Positions 758 to 64,000 of a stretch of DNA of 64,000 bases are shown piece after piece (position 1 is the first letter of the stretch; every line of letters begins with the position of its first letter). Source of the DNA: Dehalococcoidia bacterium (GTDB lineage: Bacteria > Chloroflexota > Dehalococcoidia > Plut-88900); NCBI GenBank assembly GCA_965197585.1, contig OZ240215.1, positions 1,952,001-2,016,000 of the forward strand. Direction: 5' to 3'. The position numbers and the translations under genes are program-made. The notes beneath the pieces are model-generated. The model had not been told where the DNA came from, made no database searches, and saw only the letters and a list, made by a program, of their open reading frames with translations.

Positions 758-1507
758 CTACACGTTCACCCGACCCCCGTCTATCGGAAGCTCGATTCCT
801 GTGACATAGGACGACTCGTCCGAGGCCAGGTACAGTGCCCCGAATGCTATCTCCTCCGGCGTCCCGATACGCCCCATCGGAATGTTAGCTACGGCATCGC
901 CTTTCTCCGCTGCTTCCCTGGTCTGGGTATGGAGCATCGGCGTGTCGATGGGCCCCGGGTGGATGGAGTTGGCCCTTATGCCGTCCATTGCATACTGATG
1001 CGCAGTCGTCTTGGTCAGAATCTTCACGGCTCCTTTGGAAGGACCGTACGCCGTGCCATCCGCATTGCCCACTATCCCCGCCCCCGACGACATGTTCACG
1101 ATTGATCCCCCACCCGACTTCTTCATCTCCGGTATGGCGTGCTTGCTCCCCAAAAAGGCCCCTGTGGCATTCACCGCCATTATCCGATTCCAGGTTTCCA
1201 ACGGCGTATCCGCCACGAGTTCTGGACTGTAAGCCCCGGCGTTGTTAACCAGAACGTTCAGCCCACCGAACCGTTTTACCGTGGCGGCTACGGCTCGTAC
1301 CCAGTCCTCTTCCTTCGTAACGTCCAGCTCTACGTAGAATGCTTCTCCTCCAGCTTCGGCGACCTCTTCAACAACGCGTTCTCCCCGCCCCGAATCTATG
1401 TCAGCGACAGTAACCTTTGCCCCCTCCGACGCGAATAGACGGCATATAGCCGACCCTATTCCCCCCGCCCCTCCCGTTACCAAGGCGATCTTTCCTTCCA
1501 TTCTCAT
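758..1507 (-). CDS. SDR family NAD(P)-dependent oxidoreductase
   Basis: TGGAGGIG, NNAG and YxxSK motifs. Confidence 0.95.
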   Translation of the reverse strand: MRMEGKIALVTGGAGGIGSAICRLFASEGAKVTVADIDSGRGERVVEEVAEAGGEAFYVELDVTKEEDWVRAVAATVKRFGGLNVLVNNAGAYSPELVADTPLETWNRIMAVNATGAFLGSKHAIPEMKKSGGGSIVNMSSGAGIVGNADGTAYGPSKGAVKILTKTTAHQYAMDGIRANSIHPGPIDTPMLHTQTREAAEKGDAVANIPMGRIGTPEEIAFGALYLASDESSYVTGIELPIDGGRVNV

Positions 1508-1529
1508 GACATTGCCAGCACTTTTCCAT

Positions 1530-1632
1530 CTCCTCTCCCTCGACGAGACCTTTGCATAACTCCAAGGGAGAGGGTTTGGGGCGGAGTCCTATACCCTCTC
1601 CCTCGATGGGAGAGGGCTAGGGTGAGGGTGAT
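1530..1632. repeat. Two tandem REP-like family A hairpins
   Basis: cctctccct...agggagagg, then ccctctccctcgatgggagagggctagggtgagggtg. Confidence 0.7.
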
Positions 1633-3977: not shown

Positions 3978-4041
3978 TCTAACACGTAGCAGTCACCTCC
4001 CCCGCCACTCCAGAAGGCCAAATCCGAAAGCAGGCGTCGCG

Positions 4042-4650
4042 TTAGAGTTTCTGCGCATGGAAGAGGACCGCGCTCCAGCGCCCGGTCTCTTGAAGCTCCA
4101 CTCGGCTATGATCGTGTACCGGTGTTTCCACAATCTCGGCCCTGATAACGCTGAACCCGGTGAAGGCAGCCTTGAGTTCCTCGAGGGTTACGAGATCAAG
4201 CTCTGCAAAGAACCTGACTCTCTTCATCGTTGAGTCGAAGTCCTTCATGAGCACGGTGCCCCCCGGTGCCAGGGACTCCCGGACCGTCAGATAGAGCGGC
4301 TCTCGTCCCTTCTTCCTTCCCGGAAGTGCGAAGCTGCTAGTTATTAAGTCATAGTGGGTGAACGGCTTCCAGGTAGTGGCGTCAGCCACCTGTAACTCTG
4401 CTTCTATCCCTCGCGCCCGAGTGATTTCGCGCGCCGCCTTAATGGCTTTCGCCGCGATATCTATGCCCGTCACCCGCCATCCCCGCTGCGCGAGGGCGGC
4501 GACAAGGCCGCCCGCTCCACAGCCTACGTCCAGCGCTCGGCCCGGCCGCAGGCCGTCGATAATTTCCAGCATCCCGGCGTCGGGCGCCTCATAGTCCGTT
4601 GCGTCGCCCGAGTAGGATTTGTTCCAGTCGAAGAGGTCCCGGCCTTCCAT
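4042..4650 (-). CDS. Class I SAM-dependent methyltransferase
   Basis: ALDVGCGAG motif I; start moved to ATG 4650. Confidence 0.85.
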   Translation of the reverse strand: MEGRDLFDWNKSYSGDATDYEAPDAGMLEIIDGLRPGRALDVGCGAGGLVAALAQRGWRVTGIDIAAKAIKAAREITRARGIEAELQVADATTWKPFTHYDLITSSFALPGRKKGREPLYLTVRESLAPGGTVLMKDFDSTMKRVRFFAELDLVTLEELKAAFTGFSVIRAEIVETPVHDHSRVELQETGRWSAVLFHAQKL

Positions 4651-4809
4651 ACCTGCACCTGCCCGTGTCTCCGAGTCACGCCTAGGCGATACAGCGCCAA
4701 CCAGAGCCATATGAAGCCAATCGACATGCCTGCATGCTCGGTAGCTTCCCGAATACACCCCCGTCGCCGACCCCATGACCCCATCCTTCGGGATGGAATC
4801 ACCGAGCCC

Positions 4810-5145
4810 TTACATGGGCAAGGGTATCGCTTCGTGGACTTCTATCGCACGACCTGGGTCCCACCCTACGTGCGGGTGACCCTCTAGCAGCGCCTTTGCC
4901 GCCTCCATACTCTCCGCCTCCAGGATTGAGTATCCCGTCACCTCGCTGTCGCTCTGCCCGGCCCCCGACGCGGTCATTCTCTGCCCACCCCCCAACGGCG
5001 ACCCCATGTCCACCAGGCTCTCTCCGCACTTCTCGGCCCACCCCATCCAAAGCGCCATGCCTTTCTGCATCTCCTCGGGTGTGCTCTCCGACATCGCGGC
5101 AACTGCCGACTTCGGAGCGTGATAAAGAACTATGTATCTTCCCAT
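4810..5145 (-). CDS. YciI/DGPF-like ferredoxin-fold protein
   Basis: W..W...LVD.G.PL, TGYSILEAES...A..LL.GHPH pattern. Confidence 0.7.
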   Translation of the reverse strand: MGRYIVLYHAPKSAVAAMSESTPEEMQKGMALWMGWAEKCGESLVDMGSPLGGGQRMTASGAGQSDSEVTGYSILEAESMEAAKALLEGHPHVGWDPGRAIEVHEAIPLPM

Positions 5146-5319
5146 TGTTGTCTTCTCTTTACCGGCTCCCTTCCAACGCCCCATATGAACGCCTTCGGTT
5201 CACCTTTATACTATCGTTAACCCCTGACCAATTCTGCCCGCCTCGCTCTCTGTCTCCAATCTAACCCACAGGGTATATCGAATTATCGGGGAGGCAATCT
5301 TGCAGTGTCAATCAACGGT

Positions 5320-5506
5320 ACTAGTTCAGCGTATATGAGTCACCATCGGGCAAGTACATCAGGGGGTTAGCCCTGGGCTAGCTGCTCTTGGCTCCCACGG
5401 TGTGAAGAAGGAGGAGGGGCGCTCCCTCAAACCTTCCGCCAACCTTCCCACAGTTGTTCAGAAACTCCTCGATAACGCCTCTATTCCAATCGTTCTGCGT
5501 TGTCAC
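5320..5506 (-). pseudogene. Deazaflavin (F420)-dependent nitroreductase family pseudogene
   Basis: GTG start with RBS; DWNRGVIEEF...GKVGGRFEGAPLLLLHTVGAKS, in-frame TAG at 5378-5380, then PRANPLMYLPDGD and a second stop. Confidence 0.75.
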
Positions 5507-5528
5507 TAGTCTCCTTTGGAAGGTGAGC

Positions 5529-5843
5529 TTATCGTTGGAGATTGATCTTGACACCTCCAACTCGGCTGGCCACCGAGTTATACAGCCAAGCTCCGAATGC
5601 TCCAGCCACGAACCCCACAGCTCCGCCGATAACCGGCATTGCAAGTAAAGCGCCAAAGGCAAGTGCCGTCCCAGAGCTTAGCCCAGGCGTTTCATCCGAA
5701 GTTACCCACCCTGCACTGACGAGTATGTCGATGATGGCGCCACCGAAGGAATAGATGATCCCAGCAAGCAACCCGAGAACTACGCCTCCAGCAACTGACA
5801 GCTTCGCTGCCGACCCCACTCCGATTCTGGTCAGAACTTCCAT
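5529..5843 (-). CDS. Small membrane protein, DUF3566-like
   Basis: Two hydrophobic segments; RIGVGSAAK ... WLYNSVASRVGGVKI; GGAGG RBS. Confidence 0.6.
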   Translation of the reverse strand: MEVLTRIGVGSAAKLSVAGGVVLGLLAGIIYSFGGAIIDILVSAGWVTSDETPGLSSGTALAFGALLAMPVIGGAVGFVAGAFGAWLYNSVASRVGGVKINLQR

Positions 5844-5929
5844 CGCATCCCTACCTCCAGGCATGTTGACCGGGATTTCCCATATTGTGAGTCTTCAGGC
5901 TCAAAGAGCAGCCCCAACGAGATAATGGC

Positions 5930-5958
5930 ATCATATTTGGCTCTGCAAGGCCAGTCAA
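5930..5958 (-). promoter_or_regulatory. sigma70-type promoter TTGACT-17-TATGAT
   Basis: Near-consensus with 17-bp spacer, upstream of the 5843 ORF. Confidence 0.55.
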
Positions 5959-6295
5959 TCTCCGGTCTATCCGATAAGGGATGCGGCTCTTGCCGTGAAC
6001 CATGCTTCTTGTCCGTCTTTGTTGTCTTCAGGCTCCCCGCCAATGGCGTGAAAGCGCATGGAAGACAAGGCGGCTCCCTGGAGCGCTCTCCCTCTTGGCA
6101 AGATCGTGGTTGCATTCTCCCTCAGCTTGGCGCCGGCGATAACCGGCCGATACGATCCAACACTCCCTGAAACACCCGTCTAGGAACCGACGCCTCGGAT
6201 AACTGAAAGATCAACCGCCGAAAGTGGCGCACCAGCCGACCTCCCATGTGAATCCACAGAGTCGAAGGGTCTCAAGAACGGAATGGGGTGGTGCC

Positions 6296-7043
6296 CTCCC
6301 AAAAGTGACACGAACCCCTTGACTAAAGCAAAACACTTGTACTATATTCACCCTCGACTAGCTAGTCACACACCTAAACCCTAAGGAGGAACCACAACCC
6401 GGGGGGAAGCCCAGCCCCGGCCCACACGAGGACTCAACGTCCCAGCCCATCCCAACGGGCGGCCCACGCGCCGCCCCTCGGCTCAAGCGAAAGCCGCCAT
6501 CTCCTCATTCCAAAGGCCCCGGCTCACCCTTCCCCCACCAACCACCAAGCGATGGAAGGTCCACAGACTATGCTCGGCAGGCCCCGTCCTACGACGCCCC
6601 TGCCGATTCAACGCCCCCCATCATCGGGTGCGTTTATCCCGGCCCTTTGCGCGCCGGTTTCCCGGGTAGGTCAACCGACCCCCGGTTTAACAAGGCCCTC
6701 GTGCCTTGTTTGTCCCGCCGTCCCCGCCATCCGTCTACCCGGCGGATGCACCAGGACGCCGGTTATGAAAGTCCGCCTCAGGCGGTATCTTCCCCGTCAG
6801 CGGTCCGGTCAAGTGCCGCTGCCGGTGGGATCTGCCCCACACAACCCTGACCACAGCCGACAACGTGTGGGGATAATCCAGCCCGGTGCCGACGGCTCGG
6901 CAGCAACCCACGGCCTGGTTTCTAGTCCCGGACCTTCCATCGCCTACCTCCCCTCAACAAACAAACCCGAAACACCCAAATCCCAATCGAAGATGGGACA
7001 TCCGCCTTGGGCGGGTCCCCCGCAGGAGGATTGAATAAACACC
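6296..7043 (+). ncRNA. Large structured non-coding element, copy 1 (putative ncRNA with own promoter)
   Basis: 5' block similar to 32577-32836; 3' block similar to 33241-33356 and to the reverse complement of 63500-63604; long-range stem 6549-6562/6930-6943. Confidence 0.7.
6319..6348 (+). promoter_or_regulatory. sigma70 promoter TTGACT-18-TATATT with overlapping LexA-like box AAAC-N4-GTAC
   Basis: Conserved in copy 2 (32602-32631). Confidence 0.6.
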
Positions 7044-7150
7044 GCCCACCCCTCCCGCTTGACCAAAACTCCCAATAAGGTAACAATGACAACCGACCCA
7101 AAGCTCACAGGCCGGTCTTTACCCAACGAATAAATGCAGGGGGTAACCGT

Positions 7151-8251
7151 ATGGGATACCGGATTATTTCAGCAGACAGCCACCTCGACTTGATATGGGT
7201 GCCCCACGACGCCTTTACGTCCAGGGCTCCTGCCGAGTGGAAAGACAAGGTCCCCTACGTAGAATCGCGGCCCGAGGGCAACTACTGGATGGTCGAGGGA
7301 CGCACCATGACTCGGGCAGGCTGGTATGGTCCCGGTGTCAACGGTGGCCAGCGTGGCGAGATGCTGGACAGAGAGGGCTTCACCCTCGGCGACCTACGCT
7401 GCTCCGACTACAAGTTGAGAAAGGCCGACCAGGAGCGGGACGGCGTCGACGCCGAGGTAATCTACGGCATCCTCAGCACAGACCGCAGCTTTGACGACAA
7501 AGAGGCCCTGGCCGCCACTTACCGCGCCTACAACGACTACATCTCTGAGTGGCAGCAATACGATCCTGAGTGGCTTGTCCCATTGGGGGAGATACCCAAC
7601 CACAACGGTAAGGTCGCCGGTGCCGAGCTCTCCCGCCTCGCCGATATAGGAGTCCGAGGCGCCGAGTTCGCCCCCGCCACCATGACCCAACCCTTCTGGA
7701 GCGACGAATGGGAACCACTCTGGGCGGCGGGAGAGGACACCCAGCTGCCCATCTCCTTCCACGCCTTCAACATATCCACCACCTTCTCCGACAAGGACCA
7801 CCCCGCCGCCGCAGCCGTAAACCTTGTACTGGCTCCCTCCCGCGCCGACGAGGTGCTCTGCTCCCTGATCTTCTCCGGCATCCTGGAAAGGCACCCCAGG
7901 TTCAACGCCATCCTCGGCGAGAGCGGCATCGGCTGGCTCCCCTTCACGCTGGAGCGCATGGACTACTCCTATGAGCGCCGCCTCACCGACCTGGAGCTTC
8001 CCATCCCTCCCTCCGAGTACTTCAGGCGTCAGGTCTATGCCAGCTTCATCATCGACTATTGGGGCACGAAGGCCATGTGGGAGCTGGGCTACCTGAAGAA
8101 CATCATGTGGTCCACCGACTACCCTCACCGAGACGGCTCTTGGCCCGACTCACAAGAAGTCATTGAGCGGACCTTCAGCGGCTTGCCCGAGGAGGTCAAG
8201 AAGGCCTGTGTCCACGACAACGTCGTCAGCCTGTTCAACCTGAACGACTGA
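7151..8251 (+). CDS. Amidohydrolase family protein (Amidohydro_2)
   Basis: ISADSH, ISFH, GESGIGW, WSTDYPH. Confidence 0.93.
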   Translation: MGYRIISADSHLDLIWVPHDAFTSRAPAEWKDKVPYVESRPEGNYWMVEGRTMTRAGWYGPGVNGGQRGEMLDREGFTLGDLRCSDYKLRKADQERDGVDAEVIYGILSTDRSFDDKEALAATYRAYNDYISEWQQYDPEWLVPLGEIPNHNGKVAGAELSRLADIGVRGAEFAPATMTQPFWSDEWEPLWAAGEDTQLPISFHAFNISTTFSDKDHPAAAAVNLVLAPSRADEVLCSLIFSGILERHPRFNAILGESGIGWLPFTLERMDYSYERRLTDLELPIPPSEYFRRQVYASFIIDYWGTKAMWELGYLKNIMWSTDYPHRDGSWPDSQEVIERTFSGLPEEVKKACVHDNVVSLFNLND

Positions 8252-32335: not shown

Positions 32336-32424
32336 CCACCCCTCCCCACCCCCCGAGGGGAGCCTGTCCGCCAAAGGCGGATCATTCCGAGGCCCTGCGC
32401 TGAAAGTCCGCTGGGGGGGGAAGG
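32336..32424. repeat. Composite REP-like element with internal TCCGCC-AAA-GGCGGA hairpin
   Basis: C-rich left arm, G-rich right arm, internal gtccgccaaaggcgga. Confidence 0.45.
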
Positions 32425-32576: not shown

Positions 32577-33386
32577 CCCCCCAAAAAGTGACACGAACCC
32601 ATTGACTGAATCAGGACATCTGTACTATTATCCCCCTCGACTAGCTCGTCACTCACCCTAAACACCAAGGAGGAACCAAAAACCCAGGGGGAAGCCCAGC
32701 CCTGGCCCCCGAGGACTCAACGCCCCAGCCCATCCCAACGGCCCTGCACACGGGACCCGCGGCACAAGCGAACGGCGCCATCTCCTCATCCCACCGGGTC
32801 CCGTGTCCCCTTCCCTACCCAGGCGATAGAAGGTCCATCGACTCAATACGGGCAGCCCCTCTCTCATCGAGACCCTGCCCTTTCGCGCCCTACCTGATGG
32901 GCGCACTGTTTAACCGGCATTGACTTCGCCGGTAACAGGTACGGCCCCACTTTGTCGGGCCTGGGGCCTCAGGGCCCTTGCGGGACTCCACCGTCGTAGT
33001 CATATACGATGGAAGCGGGTTCGCGCTCCCTCTTCACAGAGAGGTCGAGCGCTACGGGACTCCACCGTCGTAGTCATATACGACGGAAGCGGGTTCGCTC
33101 TTCCTCCTCATAAAGAGGTCGAGCGCCACTGGTAGACGGGTATGCGCCCCACGCCGAGACTCTCTCGGTCCGCCCCGGAACCAACTTGAAAACCTGTGGG
33201 GTTGCGCAGGCTGGCCTCCCGCCCCCTGTGCCCGAGTCCCGGACCTTCCATCGCCGACCCCCTCCCACCAGACAAACCGAAAACCCGAAACACGACAATC
33301 GAAGATGGAACATCCGCCTCAGGAGGATCCGCCTCAGGAGGACTGAAGAAAACCCCGGTGTGTCACTAACCTACCGAACGAGTACA
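32577..33386 (+). ncRNA. Large structured non-coding element, copy 2
   Basis: Promoter TTGACT(32602)-18-TATTAT; conserved 5'/3' blocks; stem 32822-32836/33241-33255. Confidence 0.7.
32981..33128 (+). repeat. Tandem 74-bp duplication inside copy 2
   Basis: cgggactccaccgtcgtagtcatatacga... begins at 32981 and again at 33055. Confidence 0.9.
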
Positions 33387-63473: not shown

Positions 63474-64000
63474 TGTATTCGTTCGATAGATTAGTGACAC
63501 ACCGGCCTTTTCTTCAGTCCTCCAGAGGCGGATGTTCCATCTTCGATTGTGGGGTTTCGGTTTCCGTTCTGTCTGTTAGGTTTTGAGAAGGCGATGAAAG
63601 ACGCTTGCCGGATTAGGCTCCCTACATTTAGATAATGCGGGCTAAGAGGCGTCCCGGGAGCGTGGGACGGGACTCCGCCGCCGCCTAGACCTGGAAGTAT
63701 GGTCGGACGTACGGGTCCGTCATCCGTCATAGGCTCCAATGAGGTTTGGCTGCGCTGTCCGCCGTAGGCGGATGCAGTAAGGGGAAAGTCCAGGGTCAGT
63801 TCCCCTCGCAGGAGTACGGGATATCCAGTTAGCCGCCTGTATCCAGGAGCCGGGAGTGGCGGACAGTCCAGTTTATTTGAGGAAGCGGACGGAGAGCCGA
63901 GCGGTCCTCGGCTACGGGCTGCCCCGTTCCGCTCCATGGGTCGGGTTGCTCCGTGAGGAGACTTTTAAGTACGGTCCAGGGCGTCTTCCATCGCCTAGTG
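63474..64000 (-). ncRNA. Large structured non-coding element, copy 3 (5' part outside window)
   Basis: The reverse complement matches the 3' block of copy 2 (caatcgaagatggaacatccgcctc.ggaggactgaagaaaa..ccggtgtgtcactaa.cta.cgaacga.taca); stem 63981-63995/63590-63604. Confidence 0.7.

Follow-up and report, generated by a model that had tools for sequence, protein, structure and literature searches.

A genus-restricted family of large, promoter-bearing intergenic elements in Dehalococcoidia and its possible role as structured noncoding RNA

A stretch of 64,000 nt from the genome of a Dehalococcoidia bacterium (assembly GCA_965197585.1, contig OZ240215.1; the whole stretch is referred to as the window) carries three copies of an intergenic element, which had been noticed in a first-pass annotation of the sequence. 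We find that this element belongs to a family with dozens of units in the genome and that the family is confined to a single genus. Each unit begins with a conserved promoter and a conserved 5' domain, continues with a central multi-hairpin domain that is enclosed by the two arms of a long-range helix, and ends in an A/C-rich tail. With a confidence slightly better than even, we take the family to consist of independent transcription units that make structured noncoding RNA (ncRNA) and end at a Rho-type terminator. This view draws on the copy number and layout of the units, their conserved promoter, the absence of a consistent open reading frame (ORF) in the unit of the window, the conservation of pairing, the synteny and mosaicism of the loci, and their presence in RNA libraries.

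Results

A high-copy family confined to one genus

The window comprises bases 1,952,001–2,016,000 of a genome (designated G000) that consists of a single contig of 3.43 Mb. The unit found in the window is named type A, and a sister type that is described below is named type B. All three copies that the first-pass annotation had reported as sharing one layout were located where it had placed them (Table 1). Its interior lengths of 367, 404 and 376 nt describe the same layout and become 373, 410 and 382 nt under the arm boundaries used here.

The copy count proposed in the first-pass annotation was performed by means of blastn with the 5' and 3' blocks. After merging of the matches, 58 type A copies were found in G000 instead of the three seen initially, which is far beyond chance. 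Each of them contains a long 5' block and both arms of the helix; in 58 of 58 cases, the left arm GCGATGGAAGG is followed by the right arm CCTTCCATCGC 304–529 nt downstream. The copies total 46,191 bp, which corresponds to 1.35% of the genome. About 14 more places match the first ~55 nt only, that is, the promoter cassette. For all family-wide counts given below, 145 distinct type A copies from nine genomes (including G000) were used.

By blastn, all eight other genomes of the genus contain type A, and none of 32 genomes from other genera does. The covariance model R1, built on the 5' domain, recognized five of five genus members as well as G000, and none of 145 other genomes of the class, which represent 109 other genera. 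No copy was found in three sister genera, where the covariance model gave an E-value of about 0.28 or no match. A pattern scan of the genomes of 185,579 species returned at least 80 stretches; among the matches listed, all were located in eight assemblies named 'MAG: Dehalococcoidia bacterium' (MAG, metagenome-assembled genome). The element had no match in plasmid and phage collections. The family amounts to about 60–70 units per genome, confined to one genus.

The assumption that the element lies outside the known RNA families held. A search of the whole window with the 4227 models of Rfam 15 at gathering score identified a 5S rRNA and one tRNA only. Even at E ≤ 10, copies 1 and 2 gave nothing except chance microRNA matches (E-values of 1.2 and 6.6); the models for OLE, GOLLD, ROOL, HEARO, raiA, RNase P RNA, tmRNA, 6S RNA, SRP RNA, the IS605 RNA and group II introns were among those without a match. 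The RNase P RNA and the tmRNA were located elsewhere in G000. No description of the element was found in the literature on large noncoding RNAs, on structured RNA of Chloroflexi, and on SAR202 and sponge intergenic repeats, supplementary files being outside this search.

A conserved promoter precedes a 5' domain with invariant blocks

The homology between copies starts ~15 nt upstream of the -35 box. A promoter of the form TTGAC-N17-19-T[AG]nnnT is present in 142 of the 145 copies, and in 140 of these 142 it ends 29–36 nt before AAGGAGG, or the invariant AAGGAGGAACC. In copy 1, the position of the -10 box suggests a transcript start near position 6353. The 5' domain that follows comprises ~120 nt and contains the near-invariant blocks GAGGACTCAACG, AGCCCATCCCAACGG, GGC(A/T)CAAGCGAA, and CGCCATCTCCTC, which are separated by short variable stretches. 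The invariant single-stranded blocks are kept in copies that are 20–30% divergent elsewhere and in all species of the genus. Judged from the sequences, these unpaired blocks look like a common binding surface.

The element H3, which lies directly 3' of CCCAA, is always a hairpin and occurs in 55 distinct versions among 133 sequences. Its stems are of at least six compensating kinds, namely GGCC/GGCC, GGCCC/GGGCC, GGGCGGC/GCCGCCC, GGUCGC/GCGACC, GGGCAGC/GCUGCCC, and GAGCGGC/GCCGCUC. A structure of 13 pairs (P1, P2, and H3) was evaluated on an alignment of 134 sequences (A3). It is paired in 93.2% of cases, compared to 36–69% with the partners slid. Cells in which both sides had changed numbered 35 versus 14.4 in shuffles, and 0 of 500 shuffles reached as high a value, relatedness being uncontrolled in this comparison. 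Column-wise counts understate H3, because MAFFT puts two of its variants in different registers.

Three further observations concern the promoter cassette and the 5' domain. In a more distant species (G004), one copy at locus L009 (G004:C1:1273525-1276643, at ~1315–1619, minus strand) contains a tandem duplication of the 5'-domain core GAGGACTCAACG...CGCCATCTCCTC. The cassette also heads two paralogous operons (G000:C1:1119830-1119960 and 2874280-2874410, minus strand), which begin with an ORF of 132–134 amino acids and an ORF of 72–73 amino acids, followed by one of ~287 amino acids; the cassette is therefore reused outside the element family. Finally, a motif of ~30 nt (GGGGTGGTGCCCTCCCAAAAGTGAC-like) occurs at window positions 6257–6290 and at ~30 other places in G000 with 93–100% identity, just upstream of promoter cassettes, some of which belong to no full element.

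A long-range helix encloses one of about ten central domains

All copies have the long-range helix, which is 15–17 bp long. Depending on the type, GGTCC/GGACC or GACGC/GCGTC is added to its invariant core, and this constitutes covariation between types. At core positions 0–8, G.U pairs on the promoter strand were counted 37 times, compared to 6 cases in which a G.U pair would form only on the opposite strand. Positions 9–10, which are misregistered in one type, were left out here; with them, the counts are 42 and 49. In the predicted interior helices, 808 G.U pairs face 242 A.C pairs; this count is biased toward the promoter strand, because the prediction was made on that strand.

The central domains are 300–660 nt long and multi-hairpin, and they fall into ~10 recurrent types. 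Clustering of the interiors of the 145 copies yielded families with 32, 21, 18, 15, 14, 10, 8, 8, 7, 4, and 2 members plus 6 singletons. Most of these families are common to several genomes, and each folds as a multi-hairpin domain that is closed by the arms. The earlier notion that the interior is free cargo which cannot be aligned between copies was thus not borne out by the 145 copies of the nine genomes. With respect to the window, the interior of copy 2 contains a tandem hairpin module of ~75 nt and that of copy 3 falls into the family with 32 members, the largest one. In G000, the best match to copy 2 covers 303 of 796 nt, and a close full-length paralogue is lacking. In terms of minimum free energy (MFE), copy 1 has a z-score of -6.5 and copy 2 one of -4.4, and 0 shuffles folded as well. 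This result and the alternative, compensating stem versions support the structured nature that had been proposed for the element.

Composition of the tail and a separate hairpin module

In the 55 nt after the right arm, the 145 copies contain on average 41% A, 40% C, 11% G, and 8.5% T, and C is at least twice as frequent as G in 134 of them. A rho gene is present in G000 (Rho_RNA_bind, 103 bits; frame of 453 amino acids). Scans of copies 1 and 2 found no intrinsic terminator on the promoter strand. The tail has the composition of Rho-dependent terminators, which are C-rich, G-poor, and unstructured over at least about 50 nt. Given this composition, a genome that encodes Rho, and no intrinsic terminator, it is therefore plausible to assume that transcription would end in a Rho-dependent manner just upstream of the neighbour's promoter.

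The 3' block CAATCGAAGATGG...GGAGGA.TGAA, which the first-pass annotation had regarded as a conserved part of the common scaffold, was found in just 28–29 of the 145 copies, i.e. in about a fifth, and cannot be a common part. Its last ~45 nt constitute a separate hairpin repeat, TCCGCC-N3-GG[CA]GGA, which stands without the element at the syntenic site of a related genome (G005). This module, often preceded by GGAAC(A/G), occurs at ~140 places in G000. The matches comprise 85 other intergenic sites, 54 sites inside type A (46 of them on the element strand), and 5 in called genes. Sites in the window, approximate and assigned by eye, are 6774–6790, 7000–7016, 32362–32380, 33310–33344, and 63755–63775. 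In a minority of copies, the module interrupts a loop of the 5' domain at either of two positions. The module looks like a mini-repeat of the repetitive extragenic palindrome (REP) kind or like a protein-binding hairpin.

Two candidate features of the tail were rejected. A mini-ORF ATGGAACATCC...GGAGGACTGA, which is in frame in the three window copies, exists in only 28 of the 145 copies and is no family feature. A GATGGAA motif that could mimic the left arm and compete with it for the right arm occurs in 29 of 145 copies, and its duplex has a predicted energy of -10.7 kcal/mol compared to -25.9 kcal/mol.

Coding potential and the sister type B

Type A has no consistent reading frame in the 145 copies, in agreement with the first-pass annotation, which had seen no credible ORF. 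The longest stop-free stretch lies in the first, second, or third frame in 50, 50, and 45 copies, and the numbers of copies whose interior is free of stops in a given frame are 13, 11, and 13 of 145. The 160-codon ORF of copy 1 (6552–7034) was considered as a gene and rejected; it has no Pfam match, and chance ORFs such as this one arise because the sequence contains only 16% T.

Matches to the promoter only led to type B. It is represented by 12–14 copies in G000, occurs in each of the genus's nine genomes, and was found in none of three sister genera. Interior modules, the promoter cassette, and the closing helix (ATGGAAGGTCC...GGACCTTCCAT) are common to types A and B. Type B has another 5' domain, which ends with AAAGGAG-N5-ATG, a Shine-Dalgarno (SD) sequence followed by a start codon. 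The frame that begins at this ATG is open over 224–455 codons in 11 of 12 G000 copies. In other species it is open in five of six loci (281, 291, at least 324, at least 340, and 339 amino acids), the sixth locus being cut. In a large protein set, 473 predicted proteins resemble the type B ORF; none of them is named or has a Pfam domain.

The mismatches between type B paralogues are evenly distributed over the codon positions (907/948/922). In 103 of 145 cases, the length of a gap run is no multiple of three. The type B ORF had no match in Pfam. An AlphaFold2 model based on 35 relatives has a mean pLDDT of 50, a pTM of 0.13, and no secondary structure. At E ≤ 1, five type B loci gave Rfam matches to microRNAs, a flavivirus stem-loop, and small RNAs, all below gathering score (best E-value 0.0047). 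The open frame of type B is maintained without protein-like constraint.

Gene context and presence in RNA libraries

The gene context was determined with a simple codon-usage gene caller of our own, which is crude. All 58 copies are intergenic; 46 are co-oriented with the next gene and 21 with the previous gene. The co-orientation with the downstream gene that had been stated for the three window copies thus extends to most of the family, albeit not as a universal rule. Divergent gaps hold 33 of the 58 copies, compared to 373 of all 1607 gaps of at least 50 bp. Tandem gaps contain 13 co-oriented and 4 anti-oriented copies, and 8 copies lie in convergent gaps. The median distance from the end of the right arm to the called start codon is 207 nt.

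A promoter-like site follows the tail in all three window copies, as expected from the earlier claim that the downstream gene appears to have its own promoter. Genome-wide, such a site was found in 19 of 46 cases with a loose pattern. The downstream genes are diverse: Amidohydro_2 accounts for 8 of 45, and the others are scattered and include tRNA synthetases, transporters, and Lgt. The divergent upstream genes are diverse as well, with 2 rve and 1 phage integrase among 28. GC skew revealed no replication-strand bias (22 of 58 copies; genes overall 1364 of 2743). That the copies strongly favour promoter-containing gaps ahead of a co-oriented gene suggests that they are in some way coupled to this gene.

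Contigs that match the element come from four RNA libraries of two studies; one of them, 505 nt long, extends over 6433–6944 with ~91% identity. The metatranscriptome check named by the first-pass annotation was therefore positive with respect to presence. The summed depth of RNA contigs on copy 1 is similar to that of the neighbouring gene. RNA contigs of both studies end at 6944/6945, which is the end of the right arm and a weak hint only. The RNA runs hold small shares (0.04–0.08) of the element's sequence words; one of the studies is labelled 'sponge metagenome', from which we draw no claim about habitat. The bins 5600–5787 and 7010–7197 have no cover in the four RNA runs, which proves nothing in the case of contigs.

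An observation of its own concerns window positions 5870–6250, a stretch of ~380 nt upstream of copy 1. Here, the RNA-contig depth amounts to 800–1900 per bin in two runs, compared to ~14 for the amidohydrolase gene. The stretch is represented by many contig variants with loose ends at 5870 and 6247 and is single-copy in the genome. It had no Rfam match at E ≤ 10 and no tmRNA call, and its minus strand folds no better than shuffles (z-score -0.29). The two ORFs it contains (94 and 81 amino acids) belong to no Pfam or NCBIfam family. A 6S RNA was not found anywhere in G000. Apparently, 5870–6250 gives rise to a very abundant transcript.

Old loci and exchange of modules

The nearest paralogues are 75–96% identical, most of them 75–93%, and only one pair exceeds 94%. 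Near-identical recent copies do not exist in this set, the best pair being that with 96%. In order to follow the loci between species, 37 copies of the closest relative (G002), whose flanks are mostly ~90–97% identical to G000, were compared. At 23 sites, the copy is syntenic with a G000 copy. One site is occupied in G000 by other DNA including a gene; in 8 cases the flanks map apart in G000, and in 5 only one flank was found. The 8 cases with separated flanks therefore mark rearrangement points.

Eight of the 23 syntenic pairs differ in the type of their interior (31–61% identity), the flanks being ~90–97% identical. In 5 other syntenic pairs, the 5' domain is only 77–84% identical while the interior is 94–98% identical. 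The syntenic sites and the mosaic segments indicate that the loci are old and stable, and that modules move between them by recombination. The idea of an exchangeable domain, put forward in the first-pass annotation, hence received real support.

Signs of current mobility were not seen. In the comparison that started from the 37 G002 copies, no clean empty site was found in G000, the lone candidate being the replacement by other DNA. Target-site duplications were not observed. Terminal inverted repeats (TIRs) that match a resident insertion sequence (IS) were not found; in particular, the ends of a DDE_Tnp_1 IS of ~1.2 kb with 6 copies are unlike those of the element. A match to IS ends had been named in the first-pass annotation as a finding that would overturn its proposal, and for this IS there is none. 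In copies 2 and 3, AGTGACAC close to the 5' end and GTGTCACT beyond the tail form an inverted match of 8 nt, which distant species lack. The promoter region of the more distant species is without the GTGACAC motif, as is copy 1 at its 3' end. G000 contains 11 matches to DDE transposase genes. Y1 transposase (PF01797) and TnpB (PF07282), for which the controls were positive, gave 0 matches in G000, as did reverse transcriptase (PF00078). The earlier suggestion of a mobile element accompanied by a reverse transcriptase, recombinase, or transposase is thus not supported.

At the locus of copy 1, a larger difference between species was observed. G005 lacks the segment of window positions 4008–6995 (3 kb); at its syntenic site, the flanks are separated by only 73 nt of other, repeat-rich sequence. 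In the window, this segment contains a methyltransferase gene and two ORFs, one YCII-like and one DUF3566-like, in addition to the abundant transcript of 5870–6250 and copy 1. Two other relatives (G003 and G001) have 2.3–3.3 kb of different DNA at this site.

Table 1. Positions of the elements and their parts. Numbers refer to the window, except for type B, for which genome positions are given.
Feature	Position	Strand	Details
Copy 1, promoter cassette	6296..6348	+	A-tract/GTGACAC motif; TTGACT (-35) at 6319; end of the -10 box at 6348 (promoter span 6319–6348; promoter scan)
Copy 1, leader and conserved 5' domain	6353..6547	+	134-sequence alignment A3
Copy 1, landmarks of the 5' domain	AAGGAGGAACC 6383–6393; GAGGACTCAACG 6428–6439; AGCCCATCCCAACGG 6444–6458; hairpin H3 6457–6476; CGCCATCTCCTC 6495–6506	+	
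Copy 1, long-range helix, left arm (AGCGATGGAAGGTCC)	6548..6562	+	arm core in all 58 G000 copies
Copy 1, central multi-hairpin domain	6563..6929	+	18-member interior family (clustering, family fold); ~10 hairpins within the closing helix in the MFE structure
Copy 1, right arm (GGACCTTCCATCGCC)	6930..6944	+	
Copy 1, A/C-rich, G-poor tail, then optional 3' block	6945..7035	+	3' block 6984–7035: 6984–6996, hairpin module, GGAGGATTGAA 7025–7035
Neighbour of copy 1 (context, outside the element)	7059..8251	+	promoter-like site 7059–7087; Amidohydro_2 gene 7151–8251
Copy 2	32577..33347	+	promoter 32602–32631; AAGGAGGAACC 32667–32677; left arm ~32822–32836; right arm ~33241–33255; 3' block 33296–33347
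Copy 3, 3' part (continues past the window end)	63513..64000	-	left arm 63985–63995; right arm 63590–63600; tail and 3' block 63513–63589 (3' block 63513–63549); 5' block just beyond the window at genome 2015985–2016238, with promoter up to 2016256
Type B, examples (L206–L210)	G000:C1:1590700-1592400, 2280050-2281750, 3021930-3023800, 3033500-3035400, 3385100-3386920		

Discussion

A model of independent RNA-producing units

In the model that we favour, a strong sigma-70-type promoter of its own would start each RNA of ~0.6–0.7 kb, whose short leader would carry the invariant AAGGAGGAACC. In the ~120-nt 5' domain, small hairpins with copy-specific stems may present the invariant single-stranded motifs. 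The helix of 15–17 bp would then close one of the roughly ten central domains. The A/C-rich, G-poor, unstructured stretch would follow as a putative Rho loading (rut) site and would end the transcript shortly before the promoter of the next gene, whose expression the unit might influence. Old copies would evolve by inter-copy recombination, in which the 5' domain, the central domain, and the tail are swapped independently. Most likely, the design would be that of a common 5' 'handle' for binding a shared partner, combined with a type-specific 'head' that gives individuality to each RNA.

Several observations weigh against this model. Direct covariation is thin: in an alignment of a 15-member family with the interior of copy 1, both sides had changed in 1 of 115 pairs, stems and loops being highly conserved, and most helices are uninformative for or against pairing because they never vary. 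In the 5' domain, two pairs of P1 have 22 and 39 unpaired cells, respectively. RNAalifold, applied to the gap-rich alignment A3, reported 0 of 19 pairs changed on both sides and returned invariant pairs only; mutual information in this part of A3 is dominated by two linked haplotypes and uninformative. The opposite strand of copy 1 folds nearly as well as the promoter strand (z-score -5.7), and the conservation of the loops could be due to homogenisation by gene conversion instead of selection. With respect to termination, it is the composition of the tail that points to Rho. Furthermore, 12 of the 58 copies point away from the next gene or run into it, and neither a partner protein nor a consistent neighbour gene was found in the upstream and downstream gene content. 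Finally, the RNA evidence consists of contigs, which indicate presence without strand, ends, or level, and carry-over of DNA into the libraries is possible.

Competing explanations

The preference for certain gaps can be read in two ways: the units are coupled to the downstream gene as cis-acting leaders, or such gaps tolerate or attract a selfish repeat. The latter explanation, which we regard as unlikely, would make the element a selfish or neutral, non-autonomous repeat with an outward promoter, similar to a MITE (a miniature transposable element with inverted repeats). Its hairpins would serve copying or recombination at the DNA level, gene conversion would conserve it, and transcription would be a by-product. 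The high copy number, the strictly intergenic location, and the restriction to one genus are in accordance with this explanation. According to a working criterion quoted in PMC11109978, motifs with many copies per genome are classed as mobile or repeat candidates, and the element fits that criterion. The short inverted match AGTGACAC/GTGTCACT at the ends of some copies, the 8 of 37 G002 copies whose flanks lie apart in G000, the exchange of modules between copies, the varying insertion sites of the small hairpin modules, among them loops of the 5' domain, and the DDE transposase genes in the genome point in the same direction. Against it, there are no near-identical copies, and neither a clean case of presence and absence between G000 and G002 nor a target-site duplication was seen. 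Neither the promoter region of the more distant species nor the 3' end of copy 1 has GTGACAC, the resident IS has unlike ends, and there is no Y1 transposase, TnpB, or reverse transcriptase; integrase-type genes are upstream neighbours in only 3 of 28 cases. Neither a replication-strand bias nor a plasmid or phage match was found. Moreover, the invariant single-stranded blocks persist across divergent copies and species, and the G.U asymmetry favours the transcribed strand. What the first-pass annotation had proposed, an undescribed large ncRNA or a non-autonomous element with an exchangeable domain, stands with respect to its novelty to Rfam and the literature searched, its modularity, and the exchange of modules; the free cargo, the common 3' block, and the mobility machinery do not.

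Coupling in cis, which we consider quite unlikely, would mean that the promoter of the element drives the next gene through a structured leader. The tail would then be a conditional Rho attenuator, and ~45 unrelated genes would form one regulon that responds to a signal sensed by the 5' domain. The co-orientation of 46 of the 58 copies with the next gene, the enrichment in divergent gaps (33 of 58 versus 373 of 1607), and the ratio of 13 to 4 in tandem gaps agree with such a role. The same is true for the median of 207 nt between right arm and start codon, for the rut-like tail in a genome that has Rho and without an intrinsic terminator, and for the small share of cases (19 of 46, loose pattern) with a second promoter-like site. 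A cis-leader should always be located upstream of a co-oriented gene with no promoter in between, which is not what was found: 12 of the 58 copies cannot be sense leaders, and each of the three window copies is followed by a separate promoter-like site. In addition, the downstream genes share no theme, and a central domain of ~400 nt in ten versions has no obvious role in an attenuator. It is extremely improbable that the units encode an odd low-complexity protein that gene callers have missed, be it alone or in a dual function. The 160-codon ORF of copy 1 and, for type B, the SD sequence with its ATG, the open frames in G000 (11 of 12 copies) and in other species (5 of 6 loci), and the 473 similar predicted proteins would be compatible with it. 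In type A, however, the share of ~9% of copies with a frame open through the interior is that expected for T-poor sequence, and the ORF of copy 1 has no Pfam match; in type B, codon positions, gap runs, Pfam, and the structural model all argue against a protein. Returning to RNA, an extended version of the model appears improbable and is offered as a speculation. The family might be a combinatorial system for which no counterpart is known, in which ~70 separately promoted RNAs are assembled from two 5' 'handles' (A and B), about ten 'heads' of ~400 nt, and optional hairpin inserts, reshuffled between loci. These RNAs might act as scaffolds or assemblies, as ROOL and GOLLD reportedly do, or as locus-specific regulators. 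In type B, a ribosome might run through the whole folded RNA, with selection acting on translation itself rather than on the protein.

If the units produce functional RNAs, they constitute a new class of large bacterial ncRNA, for which nine genomes provide several hundred natural variants, ideally suited to studies of covariation and structure. To our knowledge, it would be the first such class that has swappable domains and occupies more than 1% of a genome. If they are selfish repeats, they are of an unusually large, old, and promoter-carrying kind without the usual hallmarks of transposons; even so, they would influence how ~45 genes next to them are transcribed and would mark points of rearrangement between species. 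In both cases, the elements account for a good part of the 'empty' intergenic DNA in this uncultured lineage of Dehalococcoidia, and gene callers should mask them. At present, type B is annotated as hundreds of hypothetical proteins.

Comparison with known systems

Promoter-bearing intergenic repeats form one class for comparison; it includes the Correia repeats (CREE, Correia repeat enclosed elements) of Neisseria, other MITEs, and 'putative mobile promoters' (see PMC3575422, PMC10969869, and PMC3184786). The element resembles them in that many intergenic, promoter-carrying copies lie near gene starts, that co-transcription with the neighbour is possible, and that copies can mark rearrangement points. 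Compared to Correia elements and MITEs, taken with their generally known sizes and features, our element is five to seven times longer and has no TIRs shared with an IS, no target duplication, and no young copies. It has, in contrast, conserved internal single-stranded blocks and compensating stems.

Systems related to IS200/IS605, i.e. the palindrome-associated transposable elements (PATEs) and omega-RNAs, as well as REP/REPIN-RAYT share with the element hairpin-rich ends, a variable middle, strand-specific structure, and scattered REP-like hairpins (TCCGCC-N3-GGCGGA). Unlike these, the element exists in a genome with neither Y1 transposase nor TnpB, has no replication-strand bias, and is not matched by the HEARO and IS605 RNA models. 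Group II introns without an ORF are likewise 0.6–0.8 kb long, have domains that radiate from a wheel closed by long-range pairing, and can be multi-copy. The element differs from them in lacking an Rfam intron match (E ≤ 10) and a genomic reverse transcriptase, in having its own promoter, and in its location between genes instead of within them.

T-box and other multi-copy cis-leaders also occur in dozens of copies upstream of unrelated genes and combine a conserved scaffold with a variable part. The element contains no terminator/antiterminator pair, is not upstream of a co-oriented gene in 12 of 58 cases, is often followed by a separate promoter, and is much larger. In composition only, the ~55 nt that follow the folded RNA are similar to Rho-dependent terminators and attenuators, being C-rich, G-poor, and unstructured, without an intrinsic terminator and in a genome that encodes Rho. 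Examples of rut sites are those in the mgtA, corA, and rho leaders of enterobacteria.

The large ncRNAs OLE, GOLLD, ROOL, HEARO, and raiA resemble the element in their size of 0.6–0.8 kb, their hairpins around multi-branch junctions, their invariant unpaired motifs between variable helices, and the absence of an ORF. ROOL and GOLLD RNAs have been reported to form cages. The known classes have one or few copies per genome, whereas the element, which matches no Rfam model and is restricted to one genus, is present in ~60–70 copies, each with its own promoter and with one of ~10 versions of the central domain.

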